A stretch of DNA of 34,014 bases. Source: a virus. Lineage: Duplodnaviria; Heunggongvirae; Uroviricota; Caudoviricetes. The translations under genes and the position numbers were made by a program. The notes under the pieces are model-generated. The model searched no databases. It had not been told where the DNA came from and saw only the letters and a list, made by a program, of their open reading frames with translations. Below are positions 3,886-32,778 of the stretch, piece after piece; position 1 is the stretch's first letter; each line of letters begins with the position of its first letter. The stretch lies in the IMG/VR virus record IMGVR_UViG_2721755658_000002. One strand, given 5' to 3'.

Positions 3886-3887
3886 AA

Positions 3888-6264: not shown

Positions 6265-6267
6265 CAG

Positions 6268-8171: not shown

Positions 8172-8308
8172 ACAGCCTTGCTTTATGAATAAAACGCACC
8201 CCAGCAGCCAGTGCTACTGGGGACGGAGGGGTTGCTGGTAAAGTTAGGTATTGGATCAATGAGTGAGTCAACATAATATTAAACTCACAATTATAAATCA
8301 GCCATATA

Positions 8309-9766: not shown

Positions 9767-9903
9767 ATCTAAATATTCTTTCAATTATAACCACCTTGCT
9801 GCAATATTATGATTATACTGTATAAAATTTAACTCCTCTTAGATCTTACTTCACTGTTCCTTATGAAACAATCATCAAAATGAATCATATTGTAGTTAAG
9901 ATT

Positions 9904-10368
9904 TTACTTTAAACACTGCTCGGTTATGTATTGCTGAGCACCTTCAAGTTGGGCCTGCATCATTACCAGTCGTTCCCGGAGGGTGAAATAATCCCGTTCA
10001 GCGGTGTCTGCCAGTCGGGGGGAGGCTGCATTATCCACGCCGGAGGCGGTGGTGGCTTCACGCACTGACTGACAGACTGCTTTGATGTGCAACCGACGAC
10101 GACCAGCGGCAACATCATCACGCAGAACATCATTTTCAGCTTTCGCATCAGCTAACTCCTTCGTGTATTTTGCATCGAGCGCAGCAACATCACGCTGACG
10201 CATCTGCATGTCAGTAATTGCCGCGTTCGCCAGCTTCAGTTCTCTGGCATTTTTGTCGCGCTGTTCTTTGTAGGCGATGGCGTTATCACGGTAATGATTA
10301 ACACCCCATGACAGGCAGACGACGATGCAGATAACCAGAGCGGAGATAATCGCGGTTACTCTGTTCAT
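9904..10368 (-). CDS. rzpR: Rz-type i-spanin
   Basis: [21 protein letters not shown]... N-terminal TM plus coiled-coil periplasmic domain; ATGA overlap with endolysin stop. Confidence 0.85.
9963..10148 (-). CDS. rzoR: Rz1-type o-spanin lipoprotein, embedded in the +1 frame of Rz
   Basis: [20 protein letters not shown] lipobox then proline-rich ...[16 protein letters not shown]...; wholly inside the Rz ORF. Confidence 0.85.
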
Positions 10369-10862
10369 TGCTGACCCCACAAACAGATTTCACGCTCAAT
10401 CTCACGACGAGTCATGAGACCTTTCCATTGCTTACCGCCAGCATATGTCCAGCGACGTAGCTGATCACATGCGCCTTTGATATCGCCCTGGTTTATTTTG
10501 CGAAGAAGCGTCGATGTTCTGAAATTGCCAGCACCCACGTTGTAAACGAATGAGTAAAGAGCGCCGCGCGTTGTTTCCGGTATATCGACTTTGATGTACG
10601 GGTTAATTTGTCTGGCGACCGTGGCAAGGTCTTTATTCAGGAGGGCTTTGCATTCTGCTTTGGTATACGTTTTACCGAGCATGATGTCTTTTCCTGTATG
10701 CCCGTGACATACAGTCCATACACCAACAATATCTTTGTATGGTATGTAGCTGACACCTTCCAGACCATCGTTACCACTTGGGCCAGTGATTAACACTGAT
10801 GCTATAGCAATTGCTCCGCCACCAATAGCAGCAGCAACGACTTTTCGTAATGATGGAGGCAT
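10365..10862 (-). CDS. SAR endolysin (phage 21 R-type lysozyme)
   Basis: 165 aa with N-terminal signal-anchor-release segment [18 protein letters not shown] and lysozyme core; matches phage 21 R as recalled. Confidence 0.88.
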
Positions 10863-11077
10863 TATTCACCTCTCGCAGCCTTGCGCTTATCTTCTTTAAT
10901 CTTGAAATAAAGGTTTGTCAGGTACGTCAGCAGGCCAAATACCAGACTACCCAGCACACCGATTGCAGCCCACTGTGACGGAGTTACTCTATCGAGCAAC
11001 TGTAAAAACCAGTAGCCAGCACTGCCTGCGGAGGTGCCGTAGGCAATGCCTGTTGAAATTTTGTCCATGGATTTCAT
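10862..11077 (-). CDS. class II holin / pinholin (phage 21 S-type) with dual-start motif MKSMDK
   Basis: 71 aa [26 protein letters not shown]... from ATG 11075-11077 preceded by GGAGGTGAG; stop overlaps endolysin start. Confidence 0.85.
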
Positions 11078-11328: not shown

Positions 11329-11724
11329 CTAACCTCGCATGTCAAAGCCAGATTTCTGAAAATCTCTGTAGACTTCCGGATTGTTGAAGGCCGGAAATTT
11401 GGCTTTATGAGCTGCGGACTTTATCGCTTCGCAATAGGCTTTATCACCGTTACTGGTAGATATTTTTAACGCCGTGCCATCCTGAGAGAATTCCATATGC
11501 AACCTGCATTTTTTCCCTTTCCAGTTATGCGGCTCATCAAGTTTGGCATTAATTGCAGCTCTGATTCCCCGCGCTTGCGCCCCCCATTCATCCTGATCAT
11601 CCCAGCGTCCTGAACTGCAACTACCTGTAGCAGTAGTTTTGTGGCAATCTGAAGGGTGTAAAGGTGTGCATCCCGCAACAAAACCGACCCAAAAAGTCAA
11701 CATAACGATTTTCTTTAATCCCAC
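11329..11724 (-). CDS. outer-membrane-type lipoprotein with divergent TolA domain-III-like C-terminal domain
   Basis: GTG start with GAGGAG SD; signal peptide MGLKKIVMLTFWVGFVAGC; C-terminal ...KKCRLHMEFSQDGTALKIS...CEAIKSAAHKAKFPAFNNPEVYRDFQ... shares the conserved pattern of its neighbour and of TolA C-terminus. Confidence 0.6.
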   Translation of the reverse strand: MGLKKIVMLTFWVGFVAGCTPLHPSDCHKTTATGSCSSGRWDDQDEWGAQARGIRAAINAKLDEPHNWKGKKCRLHMEFSQDGTALKISTSNGDKAYCEAIKSAAHKAKFPAFNNPEVYRDFQKSGFDMRG

Positions 11725-11874
11725 TTCTTGCTCCTCAATCCATTAAAATCTCAGCAATAGTAGTTGTTACGTCCGCCACTGGCTCAGAGCTGACTATCCG
11801 CTAAATTTAGCTCAGTGCCGTAGCTGTGTCAGAACAAACCTAAGCCGAAACCGTTTATTACAAAACAATAAATA

Positions 11875-12303
11875 TCAGGGTTTAAAATCCAGCACCCCAT
11901 TTTGAAATACTTTATATACTTCCGGCGAAGGGGGGGCAGGTATATCAGCATTCTTTATCGCATTCATCGCTTCACGACATAAATCGAGGTCTCCACTTTC
12001 TCTTTTAACCTCCAGTAGAAGGCCATTCGGGGCCATATGCATTCTCAGTGTACACTCTTTTCCTGAATACTTACTCGCATCCCCGAACTGTTTTTCGATG
12101 GCGCTCTTGATTTGATGGGCATACAGACGGATATCCTCACTAACATCAGAAGTACGTTCAGATGAACTCACATACTGTGTCTCTATTGCTTTATCGGAGT
12201 AATATGATGTACGGTCATGATAATTTGTCGATACAGCATCAGTGCACCCGATAATAATCCCACTAATAATCAACGTAAGAATTGATGCGCTACGAAAACC
12301 CAT
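11875..12303 (-). CDS. outer-membrane-type lipoprotein with TolA domain-III-like C-terminal domain
   Basis: Signal peptide MGFRSASILTLIISGIIIGC; C-terminal YAHQIKSAIEKQFGDASKYSGKECTLRMHMAPNGLLLEVK...IPAPPSPEVYKVFQNGVLDFKP aligns closely with recalled E. coli TolA C-terminus (...YAGQIKSAIESKF...GKTCTLRIKLAPDGMLLDIK...VYEVFKNAPLDFKP). Confidence 0.7.
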   Translation of the reverse strand: MGFRSASILTLIISGIIIGCTDAVSTNYHDRTSYYSDKAIETQYVSSSERTSDVSEDIRLYAHQIKSAIEKQFGDASKYSGKECTLRMHMAPNGLLLEVKRESGDLDLCREAMNAIKNADIPAPPSPEVYKVFQNGVLDFKP

Positions 12304-13240
12304 TTTTCCTCACATATGTCATATAGTAAAGGATTATATATACCGTTGTTTTGGACGCTCAAACAGCGAATCAGATCAAATAAAACGCACATTTGTTAAC
12401 ATTTACACAAAGTCTGCGTGGGATATTCTGAAAGAATATCCATAATGTGGAGAGAATCTATTGAAGTGCATGGTGCCGGGTGCCTCCCGGTGAACAAAAT
12501 GTTCGTGATACCTGTCGGCGACAGAAAAGGTTAATGGTATCACCCCACCGCACAGGGGGATTCACCATGCAGGAGTTTTCTTAGCAAACTCACTGCGCGC
12601 CCGGCAACTCCCAACCACATAAAATGCGGAGTTTGTGGTATTTATGCATATAACTCGCAGGAATTATCTTAAAAAACTGATGTCGATCCGGATTAAAAAG
12701 AAGCAGGTCATCATCAGATGACTGGAAAAAAGGAAAACAAAAAATACTCATCATACAGTTTTGATTGCAGGGATGAGCCTGCTATGCACAATATGCAGAA
12801 TATAAGCAAGATAAAAATATGCAGGCATATTATTTCGGATTTTGTTATTAACACAACCTTTTTAATAATCATTTGGCATACAATAAACCAGCCCAAAAAG
12901 AACCGCCTAAACAGGCGGTTGGTCAATACAAAGGATGCTTCGTCTTTATTATAGTAATCTGAGGCGTCGGGTGTCTTGTATCAGACAACATATTGTCCCG
13001 CTAAACAGCGAATTACAAACCACCCTGCAATGATCTCTCATCTCATTTTATATGAGTTGACGACATCAGGATAACGCATCATCAGCCCCTGCCAAGAAAT
13101 ATCAAAACTCCCGCCAGCAATGTGTTATCACAATATTGTAAAAAAAACACAGCACCGAAACTATAACTGGTCTCTGTTATAATTTGGAGCAGAAAGACCA
13201 GTTGCCCAACTAGCAGCATTCTCCCCTGCTTTCCTGACGT

Positions 13241-13890: not shown

Positions 13891-14177
13891 AAATGACCTT
13901 TCTTTCTCCAGATTTCTTGTGTGCGAAAAACCCCTTCAGCATGCATCAGGCGCAATTCTTCTTTGGTGTAATCGCTGGTTTTTACCCGCCCGTCGATTAG
14001 ATCGTGGCATGAGCTACAGGCTATCGCCGCCTGCATATCGTGTGGTTTTGTCGCTGTTCCGCACGTCCCCGCCAGCCTGTAATGCGCCAGCACAGAGGTT
14101 TCGGGATTGTGATTGCAGTAGCCAGGGATTCTGATCTGGCACATCTGGCCTTTAGCCGCTTTACGTAAATTCACCAT
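13887..14177 (-). CDS. YbcO-like (DUF1364) nin-region protein, putative nuclease
   Basis: 96 aa with Cys/His-rich motif ...QMCQIRIPGYCNHNPETSVLAHYR...IACSSCHDLIDGR... resembling DLP12 YbcO as recalled; ATGA overlap with Q start. Confidence 0.55.
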   Translation of the reverse strand: MVNLRKAAKGQMCQIRIPGYCNHNPETSVLAHYRLAGTCGTATKPHDMQAAIACSSCHDLIDGRVKTSDYTKEELRLMHAEGVFRTQEIWRKKGHL

Positions 14178-14776
14178 TACGCAAACTCCAGTAGTTGTGC
14201 GGCCACATTTTCAACTTCCTCCTGAGAGGAGAATTTACGGAACAGAATCCAGTTCCACAGCACATTCAGTACAGATTTATAAACCTGCTGAAACTCGACT
14301 TCGTCCATATTCGCAAAAGCGATGGATTTTGCCCGACGCCCACGGCTACCGTCCGGATAAATATGCTCGGTGTAAAATCCGGCCTGAATGGTTACCCACT
14401 CGCGGAAAGCCTCAAACGACTTTAGCAACGCCGTATCCCGGGTTCTACGAGTCGCAACGGTGTTAAGGTATTGCTCTGCGGCATCACTCAGGGCTGGCGT
14501 GTGTTCCCGACCAACTGATTCGCACAGGTAATCAACGAAACCAGACAGCAGTTCTCGTTCGCGAGGCGTGATCGCCCCACCGACCGGAGTCCAGTAATCG
14601 AATCCCAGTTGCAGGAGTTTGAAAAAACGCTTGTGGAATGCGTAGTTACGCACACGCTTAAAGTCTGCGTGTATCCACTCACCTATTTTGATTTGATGCA
14701 GAAAATCGCAACTCTCCGGCGTCGCCGGGAGAAGTAAACCAGAAGAAGTTTGTTTGACCAGTTGTATATGCGCCAT
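14177..14776 (-). CDS. nin-region hypothetical protein (DUF1367-like)
   Basis: 199-aa ORF ending one nt into the ybcO-like start; family from weak recollection and position. Confidence 0.4.
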   Translation of the reverse strand: MAHIQLVKQTSSGLLLPATPESCDFLHQIKIGEWIHADFKRVRNYAFHKRFFKLLQLGFDYWTPVGGAITPRERELLSGFVDYLCESVGREHTPALSDAAEQYLNTVATRRTRDTALLKSFEAFREWVTIQAGFYTEHIYPDGSRGRRAKSIAFANMDEVEFQQVYKSVLNVLWNWILFRKFSSQEEVENVAAQLLEFA

Positions 14777-15244
14777 TTCTCAATCTCTCGATGGCGCAGT
14801 GCAGCAGATGCCAGTTGTTCAGGCTGACGTATAAAGTATAAATAAACTGGTTCCAGTGTAAAGCCCCCACCTTAATGGAATAAAAACCAAACAACAGATT
14901 GCTGGGATACAAACAACGCTTATTATTAAAAGCGGTTAAACAAATTAAATTTTAATGTTATGCAAATTTGTCAGATCACCATAATATCTCATTTGAAAAC
15001 CGCTGAAATAACAATCCTATCAGGATTAATCATATTAAGGTGAGTAAATATGGAAAACAACAAATCTGCACATTACGCTCCTTTTTTATCTGTAATACTT
15101 TTTGTTTTTTGCTGTGTATGGGCATTATTTTTATAAAAATATTCACAGATAAAATAAACTCGCCGAATCAGGTTAAGTGTGGGTGCGTTGAGGATGCCTG
15201 ACACATCAGAGGCGGCGAGGGATTTCTCCCTCGCCTAGTCACTC

Positions 15245-15400
15245 TTACTCCTCAGGTTCGTAAGCTGTGAAGACAGCGACCTCCGTCTGACCGGTTCGGA
15301 TTCGCACCTCGCAGAGGTCTTTCCTCGTTACCAGTGCCGTCACTATGACGGTTAAACAGATGACAATCAGTGCGACTAACATCGCCTTTTGCTGCTTCAT
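15245..15400 (-). CDS. hok: Hok/Gef family type I toxin (HokD/RelF-like)
   Basis: 51 aa MKQQKAMLVALIVICLTVIVTALVTRKDLCEVRIRTGQTEVAVFTAYEPEE; in-frame upstream extension to 15457 could be mok-like. Confidence 0.85.
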   Translation of the reverse strand: MKQQKAMLVALIVICLTVIVTALVTRKDLCEVRIRTGQTEVAVFTAYEPEE

Positions 15401-15880
15401 AGCCTGCTTCTCCTTGCCTTCCGGCGCGTAAGAGGCTAACCTACATGTGCAAAGCATGAAATTGGCCTCAGATTAATGTTAAGCGTCTTGCCGGACGCGT
15501 AATGTTATCTGGGGCTTTTCTCTATCTGCCTTTGGTGTTCATGCCTGAGGCAGATAGCCTCAAGCACCCGCAGCAATTCTACTTAACTCCCGTCACCTCG
15601 CCAATATAAAATCAATCAGAAAGGCGATCCATAAGAACAACAGCAAGACAATAAATTGCCATTACAGCCGCAATAGCTAGCGCACATTTGAGAACCAGCA
15701 CGACAACCTCCTGTATTGGACGTACACCAGTTCTGATAAATATGAGGCTGTCTCATCATTGATTCAATATAACTATTGGGTATAGTTTCTGTGATTTTGT
15801 TCTGTAGAAATGGAACACAACAACCAGTCACCACCAGCACTTCTTTAAATACGCCAAGTCCGACGCAAGCTAACCTTCTA

Positions 15881-15904
15881 GTCCGCTTTGAGCGAGGAGC
15901 GGAC
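15881..15904. repeat. 24-bp palindrome GTCCGCT-N10-AGCGGAC (copy 1 of 3)
   Basis: Perfect 7-bp inverted arms; same arm family and spacing as copies at 18947 and 22620. Confidence 0.6.
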
Positions 15905-16120
15905 CAAACCCGGCCAACTGACTCTTAAAGGGGCCGCAGGAATTTTTCGTCTGAACTTTCGAAGCTCCTCTCCCTGAAGACAGAAAACTTCTGTGTGCTG
16001 TGGGAATATTGAATCTTTGCCTTAGATATAAATAATTTTATCCCGCCTGAAGTTTACATTATTTTATTTATCTGTTTTTCTAAATCAGACTGCACTCCTT
16101 ACTTAAATCAGGAGCCAGTC

Positions 16121-17320
16121 ATGCCATTTGTTATTTATGTGTTTACTATCAGTGCCTTTGCGCTCGGACTCGCGGAATTTGTCCCCATTGGGCTGACAGA
16201 CGTTATGGCTCAGGGGTTGTGTGTGGGTGTGGAGCAGACCGGGGCAGCGGTTACAACCTATGCACTGGGGGCAACGTTCGCGGCACCCGTACTGTCTGCG
16301 CTGACAGCAAGCTGGAGCCGGAAAAATGTAATGCTTACAACTGCCGTTGTGTTTACTGCCGGTAGTCTGGCGGCCGCGTTTGCAGCCACATTACCTCAGC
16401 TCCTGTTAGCGCGGTTCATTGCTGGTCTGGGACACGGCCTGTTTCTGGCTGCGGCATCCAGTACCGCAGCTCGTCTTGCTGGACCGGGTAAAGCAGGCAG
16501 AGCGGTGGCTGTGGTATTTGGTGGCTTTACTCTGGCGATGGCAATCGGCGTACCGCTGAGTACATGGTTGGGGGGGGTGGTCTCATGGCGTCCAGTTCTC
16601 GGCGCTATTGCCGCTTTTGGCGCGTTCGGATTCCTTGGACTGTTGTTCGGTATGAAAGATCCCGTACGCAGCGTGCCCGGTGAACATAGTGACTCAGCAA
16701 TGCAGAATATCGGCATGCTGTTTAACCGTAAGTTGCTGGCCGGCGCGCTGGTTACGGTGCTGGCGTATGCAGGCTCGTTTACGGATTACACCTTTATCGC
16801 ACCTATTCTGACGCAGGTGACAGGGGTTACCGGAGCAACGGTGAGTCTGTTTATGCTGGTTTACGGTATTACAGCTGCGGTAGGTAATATTCTTGGTGGG
16901 AAACTTACCGACAGCATGGGGGTTAATCGTGCCAATATACTCATCATTAGCGGCATTGTTGTTGTCGTGCTTGGTATGTGGCTGCTGTCATCCTCACCGG
17001 TGAGCATGGGCATTCTGGTTGCGCTGCTGGGTATGGTGACATTTGCCGCAGTGCCGGCACTGCAGGCCCGTCTGATTGGTGTCGCTGAGCAACATGCTCC
17101 TCATGCGCATGGTGTTGCTGCCGGCCTGAATATTGCGGGCTTCAACTCAGGTATAGCGCTGGGATCAGTACTGGGCAGCATTACTATAAGCCACGCCGGT
17201 ATCGTGTATACCGGTATCAGCGGTGCGATTGTTTCTCTGCTCGGCCTGCTGTTGCTGCTTGCACAAATCCGTCGCAGCCACAGTCGTAAATTTCAACAGG
17301 TTAAAATCGTAGGCCAGTAA
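16121..17320 (+). CDS. MFS family transporter
   Basis: 399 aa, about 12 predicted hydrophobic helices, Gly/Ala-rich MFS-like composition; SD AGGAG. Confidence 0.75.
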   Translation: MPFVIYVFTISAFALGLAEFVPIGLTDVMAQGLCVGVEQTGAAVTTYALGATFAAPVLSALTASWSRKNVMLTTAVVFTAGSLAAAFAATLPQLLLARFIAGLGHGLFLAAASSTAARLAGPGKAGRAVAVVFGGFTLAMAIGVPLSTWLGGVVSWRPVLGAIAAFGAFGFLGLLFGMKDPVRSVPGEHSDSAMQNIGMLFNRKLLAGALVTVLAYAGSFTDYTFIAPILTQVTGVTGATVSLFMLVYGITAAVGNILGGKLTDSMGVNRANILIISGIVVVVLGMWLLSSSPVSMGILVALLGMVTFAAVPALQARLIGVAEQHAPHAHGVAAGLNIAGFNSGIALGSVLGSITISHAGIVYTGISGAIVSLLGLLLLLAQIRRSHSRKFQQVKIVGQ

Positions 17321-17331
17321 AGGGAGGTTAT

Positions 17332-18024
17332 ATGCTTACCCGTGAAAATATGCTTAATGGCACATTTGTCAGGGTGCATGAAGCGCTGCTCCCGGCGAAT
17401 ATGCTCTGGGACGCTGAAAAAATACGCGCATCAATGAACTCTACTCTGGAGGAGCGCCCGACGGGTGCTCCTGTCTGGATATTTGCCTACGGGTCATTGA
17501 TGTGGAATCCCGTGCTGGCGATTGAAGAAATGCAACGGGCCCGTCTGAAAGGATGGCAGCGCAGTTTCTGCATTCGTTTGATATCCGGACGAGCGACTCC
17601 TGATGTCCCCGGCAGGATGTTATCGCTCGACGAAGGTGGAATTACCGAAGGTATTGCGTTCAGACTGCCGGAATCGACTCTTATTAATGAGCTGGAAATT
17701 GTCTGGACGCGCGAGATGATAACCGGTCTTTACCGTCCGGTCTGGGCAGACGTTTCGCTAGGAAACGGTGAGGAAATTCAGGCGCTGGCTTTCGTATCAG
17801 ACAGACTGCATCCGCATTATGAACAGGACAATCTTACAGCGACCGTAGCGTTGAGCATCGCATCTGCCCGTGGAGACATTGGCACGAATGCAGATTATGT
17901 ATGGAAACTGCAGGCCACTCTGGGTGCGTTGGGAATACGGGATGATTACGTGAGTGAACTGGCCCTTGCTCTGCATGAGGCTCCCTGTAACGATAAACTT
18001 CATCAGCGAGGCGCTTCACTATGA
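17332..18024 (+). CDS. ChaC-like gamma-glutamylcyclotransferase family protein
   Basis: 230 aa with VWIFAYGSLMWNP motif and overall similarity to recalled E. coli ChaC; SD GGGAGG. Confidence 0.75.
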   Translation: MLTRENMLNGTFVRVHEALLPANMLWDAEKIRASMNSTLEERPTGAPVWIFAYGSLMWNPVLAIEEMQRARLKGWQRSFCIRLISGRATPDVPGRMLSLDEGGITEGIAFRLPESTLINELEIVWTREMITGLYRPVWADVSLGNGEEIQALAFVSDRLHPHYEQDNLTATVALSIASARGDIGTNADYVWKLQATLGALGIRDDYVSELALALHEAPCNDKLHQRGASL

Positions 18025-18902
18025 GCCATCTGAGCCATCTGCGAACGTTTCTTGAGGCCTATCGCTCTGGCTCCTTTTCAAAGGCGGCAGAACTACTGGG
18101 CATCACTCAGCCCGCGGCGTCACAGCATATCCAGTCTCTTGAGACTCTGGTTGGTAAGCGTCTGTTTATCAGGCAGGCCAGAGGCGTGACGGCAACCGAA
18201 GCTGCGGATGAGCTTGCCCGCTCAGTTTCACCCTTCATTGATGGTCTGGAAGAAAAGCTGTCCTCTTTCCGGTCAGGCTCTGTACGCGGGGGAACAATTA
18301 ATCTGGCAGGACCGCCAGATTTTATTCATTCCCGGCTTGGGACAGTAATGGCTCCACTAATGAAGGAGGGTTATCGCCTACGCTTTCATACCGGCAATAA
18401 GCAACGTATTTATTCCCTTTTGCATGACGGGAGCGCCGATCTCGCTGTTACCGCATCTATGCCTGATGACCGTCTGTACGGCTATGCACATCTACTGACT
18501 GAACGCATGCTCCTTGTTCATGCTCCCGCCATGTCAGAGATCATCGGATCAGAACCTGGTGCTGAAACGCTTGCCTCATTACCGCTGATTGCTTATGACG
18601 AAGAGTTGCCACTGATTAGAGCGCTCTGGGCCTCCATGTTTCAGAGAGCCCCTGAGATGCAGGCTACATTCACCATTCCGGATTTACGTATTATCCGCGA
18701 CTTGGTCTGTGACGGCCACGGGTGGACAGTGCTGCCGGATTATCACTGTGACAATGACCTGAAAAGTGGTCGCCTGATTTCAGTGACACCTGCAGACCTC
18801 GCTCCGACTAATCATCTTTATCTGGTCTGGAACAAAAGGACGGCTAATAACAGCCGAACCGCCTATGTTCGGGATTACATTCTTAAAACGTTTCCGCGTT
18901 GA
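18021..18902 (+). CDS. LysR-family transcriptional regulator
   Basis: N-terminal HTH LRTFLEAYRSGSFSKAAELLGITQPAASQHIQSLE typical of LysR regulators; ATGA overlap with upstream gene. Confidence 0.8.
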   Translation: MSHLSHLRTFLEAYRSGSFSKAAELLGITQPAASQHIQSLETLVGKRLFIRQARGVTATEAADELARSVSPFIDGLEEKLSSFRSGSVRGGTINLAGPPDFIHSRLGTVMAPLMKEGYRLRFHTGNKQRIYSLLHDGSADLAVTASMPDDRLYGYAHLLTERMLLVHAPAMSEIIGSEPGAETLASLPLIAYDEELPLIRALWASMFQRAPEMQATFTIPDLRIIRDLVCDGHGWTVLPDYHCDNDLKSGRLISVTPADLAPTNHLYLVWNKRTANNSRTAYVRDYILKTFPR

Positions 18903-18946
18903 TGTTTGAAACGGATGATTGGCGATGCGTATCATAAGTTACGTAT

Positions 18947-18970
18947 GTCCGCTTCTGGCACAAAGCAGAC
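18947..18970. repeat. 24-bp palindrome GTCCGCTTCTGGCACAAAGCAGAC (copy 2 of 3)
   Basis: 20/24 identical to copy 3; lies between the convergent LysR and DUF2254 genes. Confidence 0.6.
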
Positions 18971-19032
18971 GCCCACTCTCACGCGAATGCTTTGCCCTTG
19001 ACTTGCCAACAACCGTATCGCTTGCTCCGCAA

Positions 19033-20310
19033 CTATGGTTTTTTATTAGAATCTTCGCCACTAAATAAATTATAATAAATTGATTTTATTAGATATCTGT
19101 CAGAATCTATATGGTCAGCACGAGTAGCATGCTCTAATGTTTCAAATGCTAGGGTTTGTGCGGCTTCAGCAAAAATTCCAGGCCAACCCTTACTCAGCAT
19201 CGACAGTCCTTTAAGTACCCTTATCTGAATTTCCCTCATACTGGCACCATCGCGCGCAACAGGTGAGAAAAAGTCTTCAAGTAGATCGTTATTCTGAAGT
19301 GGTGCAACATGTACAGAAGGATATTTCACTTCTATTTCATCAGATTTATTCTGCGCGTAAGCGGAAAGTATACGTACACCTCTGCCAATGACATCAATGG
19401 CGGTTCCAGGATCGTTCACTGCGGGGGAAAGGGCTCGGCAGGCTATTTCGGCCATGACGCTAAGACAAAATCGGGGGTCCTGAGCAAATGAACGTACATC
19501 CGAGACAATAATCGTCTCAAGTAAATCGGTGCTGATTGATGACTCCTGGCCCTGACTCAGGTACAAAACTGGCGTGGACGGATGTATGAAACTGCCCGGC
19601 TGCGCCACGAGGTATACATGACGGGGATCATTGGTCAGCAGCTTGCTGAGTTTCACCATATCAACATATTCAACATAGCCAATCTTTTTCGGATAAACTG
19701 CAACCGTTCCTTTCGGCTGTTCATTGTTCTCAAGCCATGGATATCCGCCGAGACAGGGATTTCTTGCTCTCGCAATAAATGTTTCGATGGCCGCCTGTTC
19801 TACTTTTGCCGTTGTCTCACCAACCCTCCCCAGAGAGGTCAAATGCTGTATCCAGCGAAGCAATGTGATGAGGATTAAGGCAATGACAACCAGTGTTACA
19901 ATGAATAAAATGACTCTCCCCCTTTCTCCATAAGCTCCCATATTGAGGGCAATAATCCCTACCAGACTGAAGAGAAAAGAACCGATGAAGGTGGCCAGTA
20001 CATTTTGTGTGGTGACGTCTTCAACAACTAAACGAGTAGCTCTGGGAGTCACATTAGTAGTGGCTGAACCGTAGGCTGTGACCATGATGCTCAGCGAAAA
20101 TGTGGTCACTGCCAGCATACTCGATGCCAGTATGTTCAGAATGTTATCGACTGCTTCCGCACCAACCTTCACGGAAACCGACTCAGGTATCATTGATTTA
20201 AAAAGAATTGATAAAAGGGCCGTTATTATTGCGACAATTGCGAATAACGTTGCCCTGAACCATAGTTTTTTAAATGTCTGCTTCAGCATCCATTTCCAGC
20301 GTGAAATCAT
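19033..20310 (-). CDS. DUF2254-like predicted membrane protein
   Basis: ORF with N-terminal TM helices; start set to ATG 20308-20310 (GAGGGAA upstream); alternative ATG at 20325. Confidence 0.5.
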   Translation of the reverse strand: MISRWKWMLKQTFKKLWFRATLFAIVAIITALLSILFKSMIPESVSVKVGAEAVDNILNILASSMLAVTTFSLSIMVTAYGSATTNVTPRATRLVVEDVTTQNVLATFIGSFLFSLVGIIALNMGAYGERGRVILFIVTLVVIALILITLLRWIQHLTSLGRVGETTAKVEQAAIETFIARARNPCLGGYPWLENNEQPKGTVAVYPKKIGYVEYVDMVKLSKLLTNDPRHVYLVAQPGSFIHPSTPVLYLSQGQESSISTDLLETIIVSDVRSFAQDPRFCLSVMAEIACRALSPAVNDPGTAIDVIGRGVRILSAYAQNKSDEIEVKYPSVHVAPLQNNDLLEDFFSPVARDGASMREIQIRVLKGLSMLSKGWPGIFAEAAQTLAFETLEHATRADHIDSDRYLIKSIYYNLFSGEDSNKKP

Positions 20311-20373
20311 TCTGCATTCCCTCATATTGCAGCCGGGATAAATAAATGCCGCCTCTGTGGCGGCATGTTGCTG

Positions 20374-22377
20374 TTAACGAACCAGATGCAGGAAGTGCAG
20401 GTGTTTTTCGTACTGGTCCAGTATGTCATTAATCAGCTGTTCCTGATTCCAGCCCATTACATCATAATTTTGGCCGCCCTCTTTGAGATAGACTTCAGCG
20501 CGATAATATCGATGTTGTTCACTCTGCTGCTCATCATTATCCAGCGCAGCGAGCGCGAAGGTCGGTGAGTTATACCCGCGAAGCCTCACTTCATATATAT
20601 AATTCAGCTCGTTGCCCAAATCGACTTCAAGGCGAATACGATCCTCGGCGGCGTCACTGATGTGGCTTATCGTTCCCTGCTTGTTAAGTTCCTCCTGAAC
20701 CAGCGTCATGGCGGGTTGGATAATGTCGTCCATAAAACGTTTCACAAGAGAGCGCTTCGGCAAATACGCGATATTGCGTAACCTTCTCTGCCAGGGAATT
20801 GGGTTACGTGCAGCCGTAGGAGCAATAGTCGCCATGCTAAGGCTTTCACGCTTGGTCAAATCCCGACGCAGGGCTTTTAACAGTCCGTATATGGATATTA
20901 ATAAGATAACTGAGAAGGGCAATGCACTCGCTATCGTTACGGTTTGCAACGCACTCAGCCCCCCTGCGATCAGCAGGGCAATAGCAACAACGCCCATGAG
21001 CGATGCCCAGAAAATTCGCTGCCAGACGGGCGTGTTTGCCACCCCACCTGATGCCAGAGTATCCACAACCATTGCCCCCGAATCAGCAGACGTTACAAAG
21101 AAGACGATGACCATCGCCATTGCAATGAATGACAGCACGGAAGAGAACGGGAAATGCTCCAGGAAATTAAACAGGGCAAGCGCAACATCCTGCTGAACGG
21201 TATTGGCGAGGTCAGTGGCGCCCTGGTTCATGATGAGATAGATGGCGCTGTTTCCAAACACCGTCATCCACATGAGCGTAAAGCCGGCGGGAACAAACAA
21301 CACGCCAGTCACGAACTCACGAATTGTCCTGCCGCGGGAAACGCGTGCAATGAACATACCTACAAACGGCGACCATGAAAGCCACCATCCCCAGTATAAT
21401 AATGTCCAGCCCCCCAGCCAGTTGCTCGACTTGGGTTCATACGCGTAAAGGTTGAACGTTTTACTCACCAGTTCCGACAGATAACCACCCGTATTTTCCA
21501 CAAATGACTTCAGCAGAAGCACAGTGGGACCCAGGCACAAGACCAGCGCCAGGAGCAACACCGCCAGGCCCAGATTAAGCTCAGACAGGATGCGTATTCC
21601 CTTGTCCAGGCCGGACACCACCGAAATCGTCGCTAACCCCGTGATGACCACGATCAAAATGACCTGTACCGTTTCATTGATGGGCACGCCGAAAAGATGG
21701 TTCAAACCGGCATTCACCTGCAATACACCGTAACCCAGCGATGTTGCAACGCCAAAGACAGTGCCTATCACGGCGAAGATATCAACCGCGTGGCCTATAG
21801 GCCCGTAAATGCGATCGCCGATAATGGGATAGAGCGCAGAACGCAGCGTTAAAGGCAGACCGTGACGGTAACTGAAAAAGGCCAGAATCAGCGCCACGAT
21901 GGCATAAATTGCCCATGCGTGCAGACCCCAGTGGAAGAACGTCAGGCGCATGGCTTCCTTCGCTGCCGCAACGGTCTCTGGAGTGCCGACAGGTGGCGAA
22001 AGATAATGCATCACAGGTTCGGCAACGCCAAAGAACATCAGGCCGATCCCCATCCCTGCCGAAAAAAGCATCGCGAACCAGGAGTGGTAGCTGAAATCAG
22101 GCTGCGCATGGTCTGGGCCCAGCTTTATATCACCGTAACGTGAGAGTCCAAGGAACGTGACGCTCAGTAAAATCAGGGCCACAGCAAGTATGTAGAACCA
22201 GCTGGCATTCGTGAAGATTTGTTGCTGAAGTAGTTTAAAATTTTTGTCGGCGACATCCGGGAATACGGCGGCAAAGGCGACAAGAAGGAAAATTAGCAAA
22301 GCAGATGTAAAGAATACCGCTTTGTTAATCTGGCTTGTAGACTTCTTTGGGGTTGTATCATTTTCACTCATAATCAT
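20374..22377 (-). CDS. BCCT-family transporter (BetT-like choline/betaine transporter)
   Basis: 667 aa multi-TM; C-terminal ...QEQLINDILDQYEKHLHFLHL... resembles BetT C-terminal extension as recalled; start may be the ATG at 22371. Confidence 0.8.
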   Translation of the reverse strand: MIMSENDTTPKKSTSQINKAVFFTSALLIFLLVAFAAVFPDVADKNFKLLQQQIFTNASWFYILAVALILLSVTFLGLSRYGDIKLGPDHAQPDFSYHSWFAMLFSAGMGIGLMFFGVAEPVMHYLSPPVGTPETVAAAKEAMRLTFFHWGLHAWAIYAIVALILAFFSYRHGLPLTLRSALYPIIGDRIYGPIGHAVDIFAVIGTVFGVATSLGYGVLQVNAGLNHLFGVPINETVQVILIVVITGLATISVVSGLDKGIRILSELNLGLAVLLLALVLCLGPTVLLLKSFVENTGGYLSELVSKTFNLYAYEPKSSNWLGGWTLLYWGWWLSWSPFVGMFIARVSRGRTIREFVTGVLFVPAGFTLMWMTVFGNSAIYLIMNQGATDLANTVQQDVALALFNFLEHFPFSSVLSFIAMAMVIVFFVTSADSGAMVVDTLASGGVANTPVWQRIFWASLMGVVAIALLIAGGLSALQTVTIASALPFSVILLISIYGLLKALRRDLTKRESLSMATIAPTAARNPIPWQRRLRNIAYLPKRSLVKRFMDDIIQPAMTLVQEELNKQGTISHISDAAEDRIRLEVDLGNELNYIYEVRLRGYNSPTFALAALDNDEQQSEQHRYYRAEVYLKEGGQNYDVMGWNQEQLINDILDQYEKHLHFLHLVR

Positions 22378-22619
22378 TTATTCCATTAATTAAATCCGCA
22401 CTGGATAGAAGGTACTACCTCTCACAGAGTAGCAAAGTTCAACTGGCTATGCGGGGTTAATCGGAATGCATGGTGGAATGAGTGCCGATACAAATCATCC
22501 TATATTCTAAGGAGTTTTAAGTTACTCAGCCTGCCAATTACTGGGGCATTTAATTTGTATGATCTGTATCAAAGCTGGGATATAAGTTAAGTGAAGTATA
22601 TTAGGCACGAATTACCAGC

Positions 22620-22643
22620 GTCTGCTCTTGGCACAAAGCGGAC
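22620..22643. repeat. 24-bp palindrome GTCTGCTCTTGGCACAAAGCGGAC (copy 3 of 3)
   Basis: Direct repeat of copy 2; lies between the BCCT gene start and the replication module. Confidence 0.6.
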
Positions 22644-22711
22644 AACCACGCTAGCTCTACCCTGTGCCACAAAATGTCAATTTGCATCTGAACTAATGCA
22701 CTTTAATCTCG

Positions 22712-23134
22712 TCACTTCAATAAATACCGAACATCCCCCTGATAAAACGACAATATGCGCTGCATAACTTCGCTCTTCCGGCACTCGCGACAGATTATGT
22801 TTAGGCGACTGTCGTAGCGACGTATTTCTCCGTCAGGTAATGACCAGATAAGGTCCGGATCAACCACAACCGGTTTCTTCAGCTTTGCCCTCGATAATTT
22901 TTTGCGGGCATTTTGCCAGTCTTTACGAGCCTGTTCAGACGGGAATAACCCGTAGCCAGAATTGTATACATCGCCACTGGCAACCAGCTCTCTGGCCAGA
23001 ACGCTCATCAGATATCTTGTTGCCCCAGTTTTAGCTTCCAGTTGTCGTAACGTCTCGCGCCCACTCTGGCGTACGAGTTCAAGAACCTGCCCTTTAATTT
23101 TTTCCCGCTCTTCTTGTGTAAAAACTTTTGCCAC
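22712..23134 (-). CDS. hypothetical protein of the replication module
   Basis: 140-aa ORF with GTG start preceded by AGGAGG; follows the replication initiator-like gene. Confidence 0.35.
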   Translation of the reverse strand: MAKVFTQEEREKIKGQVLELVRQSGRETLRQLEAKTGATRYLMSVLARELVASGDVYNSGYGLFPSEQARKDWQNARKKLSRAKLKKPVVVDPDLIWSLPDGEIRRYDSRLNIICRECRKSEVMQRILSFYQGDVRYLLK

Positions 23135-23174
23135 AAGCCCTCCTGAAAATTACCTCATGACCAGAAATTAACAC

Positions 23175-24245
23175 TTACCCCCTGAAGCCCGGCGGAATTT
23201 CGTTATCCGGTTCAGAAATATGATTCACACAACGCTGGTTGTTCGTGCCGCTTACCGGGAGCAACCAGGGGTTCTCAAAATTCCGGTCCGGTCCAAAAAA
23301 CGTCGTCGCTCGCTGAACAAATTCCGTTCCCGTTTTCCCGGTAGCCGCCAAGTATCTTGCGTAACGCCTCACGCCATCCAGCATGGCCTCTGGTGACACC
23401 CCCTCGCGTAATCTGGCCTTCCAGGCACTGAAAGCGGATTTCTTCGGGTTTGCCCCAGCACGCAACGGGTACTCCCGCCAGACCTGTTCGAACACATCCG
23501 GATAATCCACTCGTCCCACAGACTGCCCGGTGTTTTCCGGGACTACCCGATCGGCTTCCCGCTGAATGGCGGAATCGGCTTCAGGCTGCTGCAGTTGGTG
23601 TGATTGCTCCGCCCTTGCGGTCATCACCTGCTGCACAGCGCCCGAATCGGCTTTCAGCGCATACGCTGAATCGGCTTCCGGTGTCGTGCCTGCTGGCTGA
23701 CCAAGATTGACGGTCTGAACATCCCCTGCCTGGTTCGTGGCGTTTTTTACGCCATGGACCATAGTGTTTTGATCTTCTTGATCTGTATCTTTATCTGTAT
23801 CTTTATCTGTCGTGACTCGTCGTGACATGTGCGTGACATTTCGTGACGCGCCGTGACAATCGCCATTTTGTTCCCGCTTTCTTTCCCTCTCTCGCTGCGC
23901 CCTCTTGCGCTCTGCAGGAGATTTTGCGGTTTGCGAAATATTGCCGTTGTCCTCTTTAAGCACCTGGCGTTTTTCCCATCCAGTGATTAAATCACCATCA
24001 AGTACCCGCCCCTGCATCGTCTGCAAAATTGAATCAATTACCTCTTCTGTCACGTCGAGCGCACTTGCCAAATCTTCTGTCGTGACATCAATGTGACCTC
24101 GCGTGACATTTCGTGACGCGCTCACCAGGAGGTGGATATACACTGCCATCACTGTTGCAATTGGCTGTCCTGACACCCTGGCAATTGTTCGCCACTTAGG
24201 GTCATTTGGCATGTCATGCCATAATCTGAGCCAGGCGTTAGCCAT
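23175..24245 (-). CDS. putative replication initiation protein (YdaU/O-like) containing internal iteron arrays
   Basis: Start ATG 24243-24245 preceded by AGAGGTGAG; position after ydaS/ydaT; two clusters of CGTGAC direct repeats inside the ORF, as for lambda ori inside O. Confidence 0.5.
   Translation of the reverse strand: MANAWLRLWHDMPNDPKWRTIARVSGQPIATVMAVYIHLLVSASRNVTRGHIDVTTEDLASALDVTEEVIDSILQTMQGRVLDGDLITGWEKRQVLKEDNGNISQTAKSPAERKRAQRERERKREQNGDCHGASRNVTHMSRRVTTDKDTDKDTDQEDQNTMVHGVKNATNQAGDVQTVNLGQPAGTTPEADSAYALKADSGAVQQVMTARAEQSHQLQQPEADSAIQREADRVVPENTGQSVGRVDYPDVFEQVWREYPLRAGANPKKSAFSAWKARLREGVSPEAMLDGVRRYARYLAATGKTGTEFVQRATTFFGPDRNFENPWLLPVSGTNNQRCVNHISEPDNEIPPGFRG
23811..23857. repeat. 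iteron array 1: five CGTGAC repeats at 10-11 bp spacing
   Basis: CGTGAC at 23811, 23821, 23832, 23842, 23852. Confidence 0.6.
24081..24117. repeat. iteron array 2: CGTGAC / TGTGAC repeats at 10-11 bp spacing, plus an inverted GTCACG at 24050
   Basis: CGTGAC at 24081, 24102, 24112 and TGTGAC at 24092. Confidence 0.6.
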
Positions 24246-24316
24246 ACTCACCTCTTTTGATACCGAATCTTTTTACTCACAAATTGCCGGAAGTGATCCG
24301 GTATGAATATTGCGAG

Positions 24317-25527: not shown

Positions 25528-25781
25528 CTCACCAAACAACTAGTCACCAGTTAAGACACCGCAAAAAGTTACCCATGGGTATTTACTTTTTAAATACCTA
25601 TGGGTATCCTTCTTTTCATACCAACCCACCCCGCCCCACAGAATGCAGGGCAATACTTCGAGTTACCAGGCAGTGGTCAGGGGTTAAGTAGCCAGCCCGA
25701 GGCGTAAGAACATGACGGCGGGATTCAAATTTTGCAGTGCAGCAGTTAGTTCCGCCACCCGGCGTTAAGGGGAGAGATAAG

Positions 25782-25916
25782 ATGGTGCATTACGAAGTAG
25801 TTCAGTATTTGATGGATTGTTGCGGTATCACTTACAACCAGGCTGTGCAGGCTTTACGCAGCAACGACTGGGATCTCTGGCAGGCAGAAGTCGCTATACG
25901 TAGCAACAAGATGTGA
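25782..25916 (+). CDS. ydaG: small protein YdaG-like (44 aa)
   Basis: ORF MVHYEVVQYLMDCCGITYNQAVQALRSNDWDLWQAEVAIRSNKM with SD AAGGGGAG; below the ORF-track size cutoff; length and position match Rac ydaG. Confidence 0.5.
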   Translation: MVHYEVVQYLMDCCGITYNQAVQALRSNDWDLWQAEVAIRSNKM

Positions 25917-25926
25917 GATTCGCAAA

Positions 25927-26082
25927 ATGCAAAAAATCGACCTCGGCAACAACGAATCCCTGGTGTGCGGCGTGTTCCCCAACCAGGATGGAACGTTCAC
26001 TGCCATGACGTATACCAAAAGCAAAACATTTAAAACCGAAACTGGTGCGCGCCGATGGTTGGAGAAGCACACAGTAAGCTAA
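25927..26082 (+). CDS. ydaF: small protein YdaF-like (51 aa)
   Basis: ORF MQKIDLGNNESLVCGVFPNQDGTFTAMTYTKSKTFKTETGARRWLEKHTVS right after ydaG; length and position match Rac ydaF. Confidence 0.5.
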   Translation: MQKIDLGNNESLVCGVFPNQDGTFTAMTYTKSKTFKTETGARRWLEKHTVS

Positions 26083-26567
26083 CGATTAAAACGTCTACTC
26101 CTGCTGTTCCAGAATAACTTCATAAAATGGGAGTATTTTTCGGTGACGAGATAATAAGAACAGTTTGCGCTATCACTCTGATGTTGAATGATGCCCTTCC
26201 GTTCTAATTTTTTCATAACCGGGTTACGGCAAGGAGAAGTGATAATAAGATTTCCTGTTTTAAGGAAATCTTTAAATACAGCGATTTCTTTCTCAGATAA
26301 ACGAAGCAATACTCGTTGCTCTGGTAGTAATGAATAATGCTTTTGAATATGTGCTCGCAATCTTGAGAAGGAAATGGCGACCACGAAAGAAAAGGCAAAA
26401 ACGATAATCTGAAAGAGCCAAGGCATTTCAGTATAAGCATTGAATGCGACAGTAAACTCTTTCGGTATCAGCCAGAGAGTGAGACCAAAAATGATAATCG
26501 TATACATAAGTCTTTCGAGTGGCTCGTTAGCAAAAAGTTTCAACAATGGAGTAAATACATCCAACAT
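26079..26567 (-). CDS. sieB: superinfection exclusion protein SieB
   Basis: 162 aa from ATG 26565-26567 (MLDVFTPLLKLFANEPLERLMYTIIIFGLTLWLIPKEF...), matching Rac SieB as recalled. Confidence 0.8.
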   Translation of the reverse strand: MLDVFTPLLKLFANEPLERLMYTIIIFGLTLWLIPKEFTVAFNAYTEMPWLFQIIVFAFSFVVAISFSRLRAHIQKHYSLLPEQRVLLRLSEKEIAVFKDFLKTGNLIITSPCRNPVMKKLERKGIIQHQSDSANCSYYLVTEKYSHFMKLFWNSRSRRFNR

Positions 26568-27082
26568 ATCAATAACTCTCAACTGTAAGGGTATTGAAAT
26601 GTTAACACAAGCTCTCGCTGTAGGGGTATAGCCGAGACCACCGAAGCCCGGAGGTGGTGAAATAAAACCGGGCACAACACGAAGGCGCATTTCCGATATC
26701 CATAAAGAGTCGGTCTTGTCTGTTAAATTTAAATGGTGGAGTGCGCCTCCGGTTGTAAATAACGACATTGCTGTGTGTAGTCCTGGCGGCATCAGTTTTT
26801 TTCTTGAAGTTCGGCTGATGTCCGCCCTTTTTAAAGTGAATTTTGTGATGCGGTGAATGCGGCTAAGCGCACGTGGCACAGTTAAAAGTCATGTTAGTCC
26901 TTATTGGTTTGGGTGGGAAAGCCGACTGTAATTGTTAACTGGTTGCAGTCACCTGGAGGCACCAGGCACCGCATCAACAAAGTTCATTTGTAAAAATGGA
27001 GATAATTATGATTGCACATCACTTCGGAACTGATGAAATACCACGTCAGTGTGTGACTCCTGGCGATTATGTTCTTCATGAA

Positions 27083-27091
27083 GGCCGGACA
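27083..27091. repeat. 9-bp target-site duplication GGCCGGACA, left copy
   Basis: Identical 9-mer directly abuts both IS1 copy B termini. Confidence 0.9.
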
Positions 27092-27146: not shown

Positions 27147-27422
27147 GTGGCTTCTGTTTCTATCAGCTGTCCCTCCTGTTCAGCTACTGACGGGGTGGTG
27201 CGTAACGGCAAAAGCACCGCCGGACATCAGCGCTATCTCTGCTCTCACTGCCGTAAAACATGGCAACTGCAGTTCACTTACACCGCTTCTCAACCCGGTA
27301 CGCACCAGAAAATCATTGATATGGCCATGAATGGCGTTGGATGCCGGGCAACAGCCCGCATTATGGGCGTTGGCCTCAACACGATTTTACGTCACTTAAA
27401 AAACTCAGGCCGCAGTCGGTAA
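27147..27422 (+). CDS. insA: IS1 InsA
   Basis: Identical translation to copy A InsA. Confidence 0.93.
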
Positions 27423-27844
27423 CCTCGCGCATACAGCCGGGCAGTGACGTCATCGTCTGCGCGGAAATGGACGAACAGTGGGGATACGTCGGGGCTAAAT
27501 CGCGCCAGCGCTGGCTGTTTTACGCGTATGACAGGCTCCGGAAGACGGTTGTTGCGCACGTATTCGGTGAACGCACTATGGCGACGCTGGGGCGTCTTAT
27601 GAGCCTGCTGTCACCCTTTGACGTGGTGATATGGATGACGGATGGCTGGCCGCTGTATGAATCCCGCCTGAAGGGAAAGCTGCACGTAATCAGCAAGCGA
27701 TATACGCAGCGAATTGAGCGGCATAACCTGAATCTGAGGCAGCACCTGGCACGGCTGGGACGGAAGTCGCTGTCGTTCTCAAAATCGGTGGAGCTGCATG
27801 ACAAAGTCATCGGGCATTATCTGAACATAAAACACTATCAATAA
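27341..27844 (+). CDS. insB: IS1 InsB reading frame
   Basis: Identical translation to copy A InsB. Confidence 0.92.
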
Positions 27845-27859
27845 GTTGGAGTCATTACC

Positions 27860-27868
27860 GGCCGGACA
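27860..27868. repeat. 9-bp target-site duplication GGCCGGACA, right copy
   Basis: See left copy. Confidence 0.9.
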
Positions 27869-28005
27869 TATATTGCCTCGGCAAACAATATTAAAAAGCG
27901 AAAACTATATATTCGTAACCTGACCACAAAAACATGCATTACTGACCGCATGATTAAAGTCTTCCTCGGTCGTGATGGTTTACCTGTAAAGGCGGAGTCA
28001 TGGTG

Positions 28006-28176
28006 ATGACTAAGAAAATAAAATGTGCTTACCACCTTTGCAAAAAAGACGTTGAAGAAAGCAAAGCTATTGAAAGAATGCTTCACTTCATGCACGGGAT
28101 TTTATCAAAAGACGAACCGAGAAAATATTGCAGTGAAGCTTGTGCCGAAAAAGACCAGATGGCACATGAACTTTAA
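28006..28176 (+). CDS. ydaE: small Cys-containing protein YdaE-like (56 aa)
   Basis: ORF MTKKIKCAYHLCKKDVEESKAIERMLHFMHGILSKDEPRKYCSEACAEKDQMAHEL between kilR and racC; below ORF-track cutoff. Confidence 0.6.
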   Translation: MTKKIKCAYHLCKKDVEESKAIERMLHFMHGILSKDEPRKYCSEACAEKDQMAHEL

Positions 28177-28250
28177 TTAATTGACTATTCGAAACTGAAT
28201 TTATGCCAGAAATGGCAGGTATTCGCTCAACCTTAATTAAGGAGAAAAAC

Positions 28251-28526: not shown

Positions 28527-28627
28527 AAGAAATAGCCTGCGTATGGCGCAGGCTATGAACAGTGTGTATCCGGCAAGATCATTCACTGAACAAAACGAAT
28601 TTTAATCTGAGTTGAGGTTAAAAAACA

Positions 28628-32777: not shown

Positions 32778-32778
32778 T

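Follow-up and report, generated by a model that had tools for sequence, protein, structure and literature searches.

Described systems

Temperate phages carry accessory genes at hotspots. In the P2 and P4 defense hotspots, a fixed backbone position holds variable, mostly anti-phage cargo (Rousset et al. 2022, PMC9122126; PMC13586616); there, as at the lambdoid morons, the cargo is shuffled among phages, satellites, plasmids, and chromosomes. Integrons are arrays of unrelated accessory and defense cassettes, each with a palindromic site inside which its border lies. A tyrosine recombinase gene stands beside a special half-conserved site, and there can be action in trans on arrays without the recombinase, as in clusters of attC sites lacking integron-integrases (CALINs). 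The Xer/dif systems (pdif of Acinetobacter plasmids and integrative mobile elements exploiting Xer [IMEX], e.g., CTX phage) have a 28-bp site of 11-6-11 organization and site-bounded cargo modules. Here we describe a locus that resembles all three. It lies in the window, by which we mean the whole 34,014-nt stretch of IMG/VR virus record IMGVR_UViG_2721755658_000002 (Caudoviricetes), a defective Rac-family lambdoid prophage of Escherichia coli at ttcA. Between the hok/sok and replication modules of this prophage are two cassettes of transporter and regulator genes, A and B, bordered by three copies (J1, J2, and J3) of a short inverted repeat. We propose, with a probability of about 0.55, that such cassettes are exchanged by site-specific recombination at these sites through sYR, a small tyrosine recombinase encoded elsewhere.

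In contrast to the temperate-phage hotspots, this locus has a short recombination-type site at each border and, as proposed here, a candidate dedicated recombinase, and the cargo of the window is metabolic and transport-related rather than defensive. PMC13586616 makes no mention of a palindrome, hairpin, inverted repeat, or recombination site. Unlike the 60- to 140-nt folded attC of integrons, with its R and L boxes, the site is a 24- to 28-bp core that looks double-stranded (11-6-11) and shows no hairpin covariation. There is no integrase in the slot of the window and there are no attC sites (57–141 nt, R''-L''...L'-R'); sYR has 200 aa and reaches only 17 bits against integron-integrase models. 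Also unlike those of integrons, the cassettes are 1–6 kb long, often multigene, in either orientation, and presumably self-expressed, without the logic of a Pc promoter, and the arrays lie in prophages, islands, and plasmids. Compared with the Xer/dif systems, sYR is neither XerC nor XerD (45 and 28 bits, against cut-offs of ~330), and the arms of the site bear no resemblance to the dif consensus, GGTGCGCATAA-TGTATA-TTATGTTAAAT. The heterologous centers of the sites would permit one strand-pair exchange followed by replication, as for CTX. The PeSLs of T4-type phages, "mobile regulatory cassettes" made of a promoter and a stem-loop, reportedly flank novel open reading frames (ORFs) in hyperplastic regions and are said to mediate modular shuffling by homologous recombination confined to a single phage group. 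The present site, in contrast, has a tyrosine recombinase associated with it and is conserved from one proteobacterial class to another. It also differs from the repetitive extragenic palindromic (REP)/RAYT repeats in having no GTAG and in being conserved across classes rather than species-specific, although its alphaproteobacterial doublets are REPIN-like. To our knowledge, dif, cer, hix/gix, sfx, attC, and loxP offer no match beyond a 7-base coincidence, GTGCCAA, with the shufflon core.

Cassette borders lie inside a short inverted repeat

Alignment of the window with related prophages places homology breakpoints at a few recurring positions. Homology (BLAST) to the backbone of phage Tritos extends over 15156–15904 and resumes at 22612, a single 1.3-kb gene lying between them in Tritos. 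The Rac prophage of strain 4114 is homologous up to 15904 and again from 18945, with other genes in between, and homology to plasmids starts at 18945 and ends at 22644. Since these sharp breakpoints recur, the cargo splits at 18945 into cassettes A and B (for coordinates, see Table 1). A preliminary description of this DNA had taken the whole as a single 8-kb insert; it consists instead of hok-bearing backbone and two independently mobile cassettes with site-defined borders.

The sites at the breakpoints are 24-bp inverted repeats that, together with their conserved flanks, form two 11-bp arms around an asymmetric 6-bp center, either TGGCAC or GAGCGA. With one mismatch allowed, the pattern GTCYGCT-N10-AGCRGAC matches three times in the window, at the junctions only, against 0.01 matches expected from shuffles. 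The prophage of strain 4114 has four sites bounding three cassettes, and the plasmids have three sites.

We catalogued every between-site interval in 80 IMG/VR loci encoding DUF977 and in ~110 site-carrying loci that were fetched. In 132 loci, these intervals fall into ~30 cassette types of 0.5–5.8 kb, with genes in either orientation and ends that are constant for each type. The slot between the hok/sok and DUF977/replication modules holds one to three cassettes in related prophages and two in the window. Each type has a start (center, two bases, right arm) and an end (left arm, two or three bases) that are independent of its neighbor, and the two backbone halves, "GTCCGCT tt" on the hok side and "aa AGCGGAC aaccacgc" on the replication side, each have more than 20 different cassettes as partners. 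The bases traveling with the left partner end at loop position 2–3, and those traveling with the right partner begin at position 9. Because the half-sites stay constant whatever the neighbor, every exchange point falls inside the 6-bp center, both at the three window junctions and in the ~30 cassette types. Cassette A (type K2, n = 11) has constant ends, always comes first, and is always followed by B; cassette B (type K0, n = 22) has five different left neighbors.

Table 1. Coordinates of the slot, its borders, and the flanking backbone in the window
Feature	Position	Strand	Remarks
DUF1367 (irsA-like)	14177–14776	−	Left backbone flank; first gene of the nin/Q-side module (DUF1367-YbcO-DUF1133/Q); Pfam PF07105, 327 bits; same annotation in L001 and L004
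hok (15245–15400, 51 aa) and overlapping mok frame (to 15457; 70 aa)	15245–15457	−	Phage backbone, not cargo; PGAP name HokD in identical genomes
hok mRNA leader/sok antisense region	15395–15569	−	Rfam sok model (RF01794), 116 bits (gathering score, 59)
J1, GAGCGA center	15881–15904	+	GTCCGCT TT GAGCGA GG AGCGGAC; end of hok-side backbone; left half joined to >20 cassette starts
Cassette A body (repeat unit 3066 bp)	15905–18946	+	MFS 16121–17320, ChaC-like gamma-glutamylcyclotransferase 17332–18024, LysR 18021–18902; Pfam, NCBIfam
J2, TGGCAC center	18947–18970	+	GTCCGCT TC TGGCAC AA AGCAGAC; separates cassette A from cassette B
Cassette B body (repeat unit 3673 bp)	18971–22619	−	DUF2254 membrane protein 19033–20310, BetT-like BCCT 20374–22371, upstream region to ~22619; Pfam, NCBIfam
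J3, TGGCAC center	22620–22643	+	GTCTGCT CT TGGCAC AA AGCGGAC; start of replication-side backbone; right half joined to >20 cassette ends
DUF977 (lygF-like; 22712–23134) and replisome organizer (23175–24251)	22712–24251	−	Right backbone flank; Pfam PF06163; "phage replisome organizer" in L002; 97% identical to Tritos

Other explanations of the sites themselves were rejected. They are not intrinsic terminators, there being no T-run after them on either strand, nor a known RNA family, as Rfam returns nothing at gathering or permissive E-values.

The preliminary description had called prophage carriage of such genes unusual. Among the sampled related prophages with both backbone signatures, at least one cassette is always present, and matches to known or candidate anti-phage defense systems are frequent among the other cassettes (PD-T7-1, Tmn, SIR2/ThsA-like, Hp1/Hp2, PDC-S06, S15, S33, and S39). 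In K-12 Qin (L090), relBE and flxA/ydfV have degenerate versions of the site as borders (9982–10005 and 10973–10996). With these borders, relBE, directly upstream of hokD, looks like one more cassette of this slot.

A candidate recombinase beside a half-site

The 200-aa protein sYR consists of a tyrosine-recombinase catalytic domain only and occurs in two cassette types and on plasmid pPO125 (L215:9384–9986, plus strand; L340:14062–14664; L342:12098–12670; L005:4299–4901, minus strand; all outside the window). Its sequence shows the catalytic residues R-K-HxxR-H-Y; it belongs to no curated family and has no sequence relative in the PDB. Copies 77–95% identical are found in E. coli, Providencia, Proteus, Pantoea, Idiomarina, and Pseudoalteromonas, and 924 of the 5426 complete E. 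coli genomes have one. The gene lies inside arrays in prophages, on pPO125, in the CFT073 island, and in another Rac slot.

At all 10 loci inspected (E. coli prophages, the plasmid, the CFT073 island, another Rac slot, Providencia islands, an Idiomarina chromosome, and a marine integrative and conjugative element), the stop codon of sYR is followed by CAGGGCTG-N5-6-CAGCCCT-GTGCCA-NN-AGCGGAC. In this element the 3′ limb of a hairpin takes the place of the left arm, the center is of the TGGCAC type (on the other strand), and the right arm is normal; the sequences diverge directly after it. The arrangement of hairpin and half-site is kept in 10 of 11 distinct IMG/VR homologs at least 83% identical to sYR. 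In homologs 55%–66% identical, the hairpin is kept with compensatory changes, and some have variant half-sites.

In the mechanism we propose, cassettes would enter and swap by site-specific recombination at the sites rather than by random illegitimate events, and sYR, encoded elsewhere, would act in trans on those of the window. The sYR gene stands beside its hairpin and half-site much as an integron integrase gene stands beside attI. Because gene orientation is mixed, the cassettes would carry their own promoters.

One array with sYR is that of CFT073 (L340, 12497–22508), in which sYR is followed by an ETEC_3214-family gene, a gene like that of cassette type K1, and a TonB-receptor/ABC iron-uptake operon, each site-bounded. 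Since the iron-uptake operon is bounded in this way, virulence-associated cargo also occurs in this packaging.

The site across Proteobacteria

An exact-pattern scan of one genome per species returned at least 120 stretches, against ~4 expected by chance, a figure that we estimated ourselves from the information content of the pattern and the size of the collection and that was not computed by a tool. The exact matches span alpha-, beta-, and gammaproteobacterial genomes; among the matches listed are metagenome-assembled genomes (MAGs) of Hyphomicrobiales, Xanthobacteraceae, and Nitrosomonadaceae, together with Pantoea, Serratia, Rahnella, Klebsiella, Citrobacter, and Pseudomonas. The consensus of 290 distinct copies is AT-GTCCGCT-WT-TGGCAC-AA-AGCGGAC-AT (ATGTCCGCTWT-TGGCAC-AAAGCGGACAT), that is, 28 bp in 11-6-11 order, as in tyrosine-recombinase core sites such as dif. 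In Enterobacterales chromosomes, units made of a GAGCGA site, cargo, and a TGGCAC site follow in succession ~18 bp apart; their cargo includes a TauE-type exporter and, in Citrobacter, an autotransporter cluster.

The 28-bp site, ATGTCCGCTWTTGGCACAAAGCGGACAT, recurs near base-for-base in alpha- and betaproteobacterial MAGs (L091–L210; e.g., L119:523–546 and L120:3028–3051). Usually, a MAG copy and another palindrome ~20 nt from it form a doublet behind ordinary genes, in the manner of REP/REPIN elements. In L110, two copies (1919–1942 and 2816–2839) flank a single MBL-fold-like gene.

More tentatively, and at somewhat less than even odds, we suggest that the sites and sYR together form a previously unrecognized, Proteobacteria-wide system of cassette capture and exchange, with integron-like logic and a dif-like double-stranded core. 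Such a system would stock the defense hotspot of Rac/Qin-type prophages, move chromosomal operons into phages (cassette A), and feed plasmids and islands (cassette B and relBE on qnrS1 plasmids; the CFT073 iron-uptake operon). The cargo alone is ordinary, if uncommon, as prophage-borne accessory genes go, and the packaging matters more. If the sites and sYR work as a system, they explain how one lambdoid slot accumulates interchangeable defense systems, and show how a chromosomal operon of another genus became phage cargo and how the same cassettes reach clinically important qnrS1 and mph(A) plasmids and uropathogenic islands. Site and sYR would then also provide a sequence signature for mobile cassettes and new defense genes across Proteobacteria and, as a compact recombinase/site pair, a candidate genetic tool.

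Passive repeats or a dedicated recombinase

The best of the alternatives, which we nevertheless consider unlikely, is that the sites are passive palindromes of the REP or terminator kind and that cassettes are swapped by short-homology recombination (RecET/Red or RecA) between these 24- to 28-bp sequences, during co-infection or encounters between prophages, with no dedicated recombinase. That lambdoid phages become mosaic through short conserved linkers is an established idea, and several of our results fit it as well as they tell against exchange through sYR. Rac encodes RecE and RecT, which could exchange DNA via such short conserved sequences. The window has no sYR gene, and neither do most arrays. 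None of the 120 listed genome site loci has sYR within ~8 kb, and clustering of the ORFs at these loci, in search of a recombinase next to the sites, found enrichment only for an ABC substrate-binding protein. The alphaproteobacterial copies, with no recombinase nearby, look like REP-like intergenic doublets behind ordinary genes rather than cassette borders. None of the sampled loci with both backbone signatures has an empty slot, so that insertion itself was not observed; this fits replacement through a double crossover.

Further points also weigh against exchange through sYR. All of the evidence for recombination is comparative, no recombination event having been seen. The genomes that have both cassettes (295) always have them in the same order, which fits one ancient event and clonal spread. 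The arms lack compensatory covariation (at position 4: CG 152, TG 60, CA 52, TA 6); a requirement for a hairpin, as single-stranded DNA or RNA, was rejected, there being no compensatory excess at this position. There is weak support for a match between the two ends of each cassette of the kind expected from hybrid att sites. Our reading of J2 and J3 as hybrid attL/attR, from matched C- or T-type arms at the two ends, was dropped after counts in ~18 types (A-start, two T and four C; G-start, one T and 11 C). Neither the sites nor sYR is described in the literature we searched, coverage of which was incomplete, and the system may already have been described.

Several observations speak against passive exchange. 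Exchange is confined to the 6-bp center, although the 7-bp arms are best conserved and form the longest identical stretches, and the junctions are precise despite two differing centers (TGGCAC and GAGCGA). A passive spacer would not be expected to keep 28 bp base for base over alpha-, beta-, and gammaproteobacteria, and there is a half-site at the 3′ end of a conserved recombinase gene. We therefore prefer site-specific recombination through sYR at the probability given above.

Cassette A, a captured chromosomal operon

The genes for the ChaC-like protein and LysR in cassette A overlap by 4 bases, and this operon converges with that of cassette B at 18902/19033. The closest families to the MFS protein are DHA1-type exporters (Cmx/CmrA, AraJ, NepI), with every score far below the family cut-off. 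The ChaC domain (PF04752) scores 122 bits, with no NCBIfam equivalog match; cleavage of gamma-glutamyl compounds is established for enzymes of the ChaC family. Family membership predicts a LysR-controlled transporter together with a gamma-glutamyl-cleaving enzyme.

The three-gene operon is found in the chromosome of Enterobacter sp. BIGb0383 with 87% nucleotide identity over 16008–18905 and, more distantly, in Citrobacter. We looked for flanking sites around the Enterobacter and Citrobacter copies and found none. The operon is thus native to Enterobacter-like chromosomes, and cassette A is a chromosomal operon that has been captured. In these chromosomes, LysR travels with MFS and ChaC and there is no BCCT gene nearby. 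This argues against the regulation of the BCCT transporter by LysR that was proposed in the preliminary description: LysR belongs to the MFS-ChaC operon, in a separate cassette.

Cassette B on plasmids and islands

The BCCT protein of cassette B matches PF02028 with 662 bits and the BetT subfamily (NF007399) with 752 bits, against a cut-off of 695, whereas its score for the BCCT glycine-betaine model, 594 bits, is below the cut-off of 650. Its identity to K-12 BetT is 42% from end to end (residues 4–665), C-terminal domain included. From family membership, our best guess is uptake of choline or a related quaternary amine; osmoprotection from cassette B is plausible only together with the host betBA genes. 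The model of DUF2254 (pLDDT 79) is a helical membrane bundle with a C-terminal alpha/beta domain; it has no fold match, the PDB giving nothing better than E = 0.1. The pairing of BCCT and DUF2254 is not conserved among distant homologs. Between the two genes, at 20346–20366, the minus strand has a strong GC-rich stem-loop (ATGCCGCC...GGCGGCAT) followed by a T-rich tail, which may attenuate read-through into DUF2254.

Positions 18945–22644, and only that stretch, occur with 99.8%–99.9% identity on IncY and IncF qnrS1/mph(A) plasmids of E. coli, Shigella, Klebsiella, and Enterobacter. Older copies of cassette B, 93%–94% identical, lie in E. coli islands (e.g., that of O104:H4, with a degenerate site at one border) and on >1200 Klebsiella IncF plasmids. 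On pPO125 (L005) and S. sonnei p59 (L006), the region at ~3249–11050, beside qnrS1/ISKpn19 and mph(A)/IS26, consists of K1, then the BCCT-DUF2254 cassette, then relB. This plasmid region is a fragment captured from a cassette array of the prophage type.

Arrival of the cargo by transposition or insertion sequence (IS)-mediated capture, for example from a resistance plasmid via IS26, IS903, or IS1, with the motif as part of the transferred DNA, is very improbable. It is true that the plasmid regions on which cassette B is 99.8% identical are rich in IS26, IS903, and ISKpn19, that some copies of the region are interrupted by IS903, IS3, or IS1, and that the window holds two copies of IS1. However, no IS, inverted terminal repeats, or target-site duplication was found at any of the three window junctions, ~30 unrelated cassettes have the same junction structure, and the plasmid segment is organized like a prophage array (K1, cassette B, and relB as in Qin). 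Because it has this site-bounded prophage-array organization, the segment points to transfer from prophage to plasmid and not the reverse.

The hok/sok module

The preliminary description also counted hok among the imported cargo, as a plasmid-style toxin. The hok/sok module (15156–15904) is found at the same position in Tritos, 640R1, Rac-SA53, the 933W-type Stx phages (hokW), and K-12 Qin (hokD); hok, mok, and sok are normal backbone of Rac/Qin-type lambdoid phages. The module resembles the hok/sok of lambdoid prophages (hokD/relF in K-12 Qin; hokW/sokW in 933W) in its Hok ORF, the overlapping mok, the sok-type leader, and its position between the replication and Q modules. The copy in the window looks complete; K-12 hokD is directly downstream of relBE. 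The NCBIfam Hok models match with 48 and 39 bits, short of their respective cut-offs (73 and 89). As a member of this family, hok/sok would stabilize the prophage.

In strain 4114, the hok/sok module (window 15138–15596, compared with L002 7156–8136) is swapped for ~1 kb with a DUF1971 gene, and the left border has no site. This replacement indicates that the hok module is exchangeable too, by some other route.

Prophage context

The genes named in the preliminary description are present where it placed them and have strong family support in Pfam, NCBIfam, and Rfam. The GC mosaic that it noted is real but modest: 0.547 for MFS, 0.521 for ChaC, 0.519 for LysR, 0.512 for BCCT, and 0.447 for DUF2254, against 0.470 for the whole window. 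Its placement of the transporter and regulator genes as accessory cargo of one contiguous Rac-family prophage, between the replication and nin/Q modules, also stands. As non-phage genes that lie between conserved phage modules and are absent from close relatives, they are cargo of the phage moron or lysogenic-conversion type. A consensus scan gave promoter-like and terminator-like sites in numbers no higher than about the shuffled expectation.

In gene order, the window has tail-fiber remnants and IS1, P22-like head genes, trkG, lysis genes, two genes with TolA domains, and the Q-like DUF1133 gene; then follow YbcO, DUF1367, hok, the cargo, DUF977, the replisome organizer, ydaT/ydaS-like genes, the repressor, sieB, kilR, recET, ralR, xisR, and intR. 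Positions 27860–34014 (kilR to intR) are 99.9% identical to K-12 Rac; besides these, only 7918–10348 (trkG) and 25617–27091 are common to both. K-12 Rac lacks the cargo, as the preliminary description had stated, and with it the whole DUF977-hok-nin-Q stretch; its replication module is a different one (ydaU/ydaV), and all that lay between that module and the lysis genes has been lost. Tritos, 640R1, Rac-SA53, and strain 4114 have other DNA at the position of the cargo. The cargo was found in none of the deposited phage genomes searched. The 6.75-kb cargo is present in 295 of the 5426 complete E. coli genomes (~5%).

That the flanking modules are two elements or an assembly join, with ordinary chromosome as the cargo between them, has next to no probability: the prophage is indeed defective and IS-ridden (IS1 at 1–713 and 27147–27859; the tail region of TOE3 truncated by IS1), but 281 of the same complete genomes cover at least 80% of the 9.5-kb stretch 14000–23500 at ~100% identity, the contexts inspected (strains 13C1065T and TOE3) have it in one contiguous order from uspF to ttcA, between uspF/ompN and intR-ttcA, and the free phages Tritos and 640R1 keep hok and DUF977/rep 1.8–2 kb apart in unchanged order. 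Since the genomes are closed and come from many laboratories and sequencing platforms, a join or two separate elements can be excluded.

The two IS1 copies of the window are 100% identical, and the window begins within the first. The second, which K-12 lacks, separates the kilR-side and sieB-side regions common to K-12 Rac. In strain TOE3, IS1 truncates the head/tail region. Rfam also identifies the RalA antitoxin RNA with ralR (32280–32458, minus strand, 225 bits) and STnc100 downstream of the Q-like gene (12414–12600, minus strand, 87 bits). Between the Q and lysis genes, two genes with TolA C-terminal domains occupy 11329–12303 on the minus strand. A degenerate site-like palindrome with two mismatches, GTCCGCC actggctcag AGCTGAC (11771–11794), lies between them and may represent a further, old cassette border within the late region.

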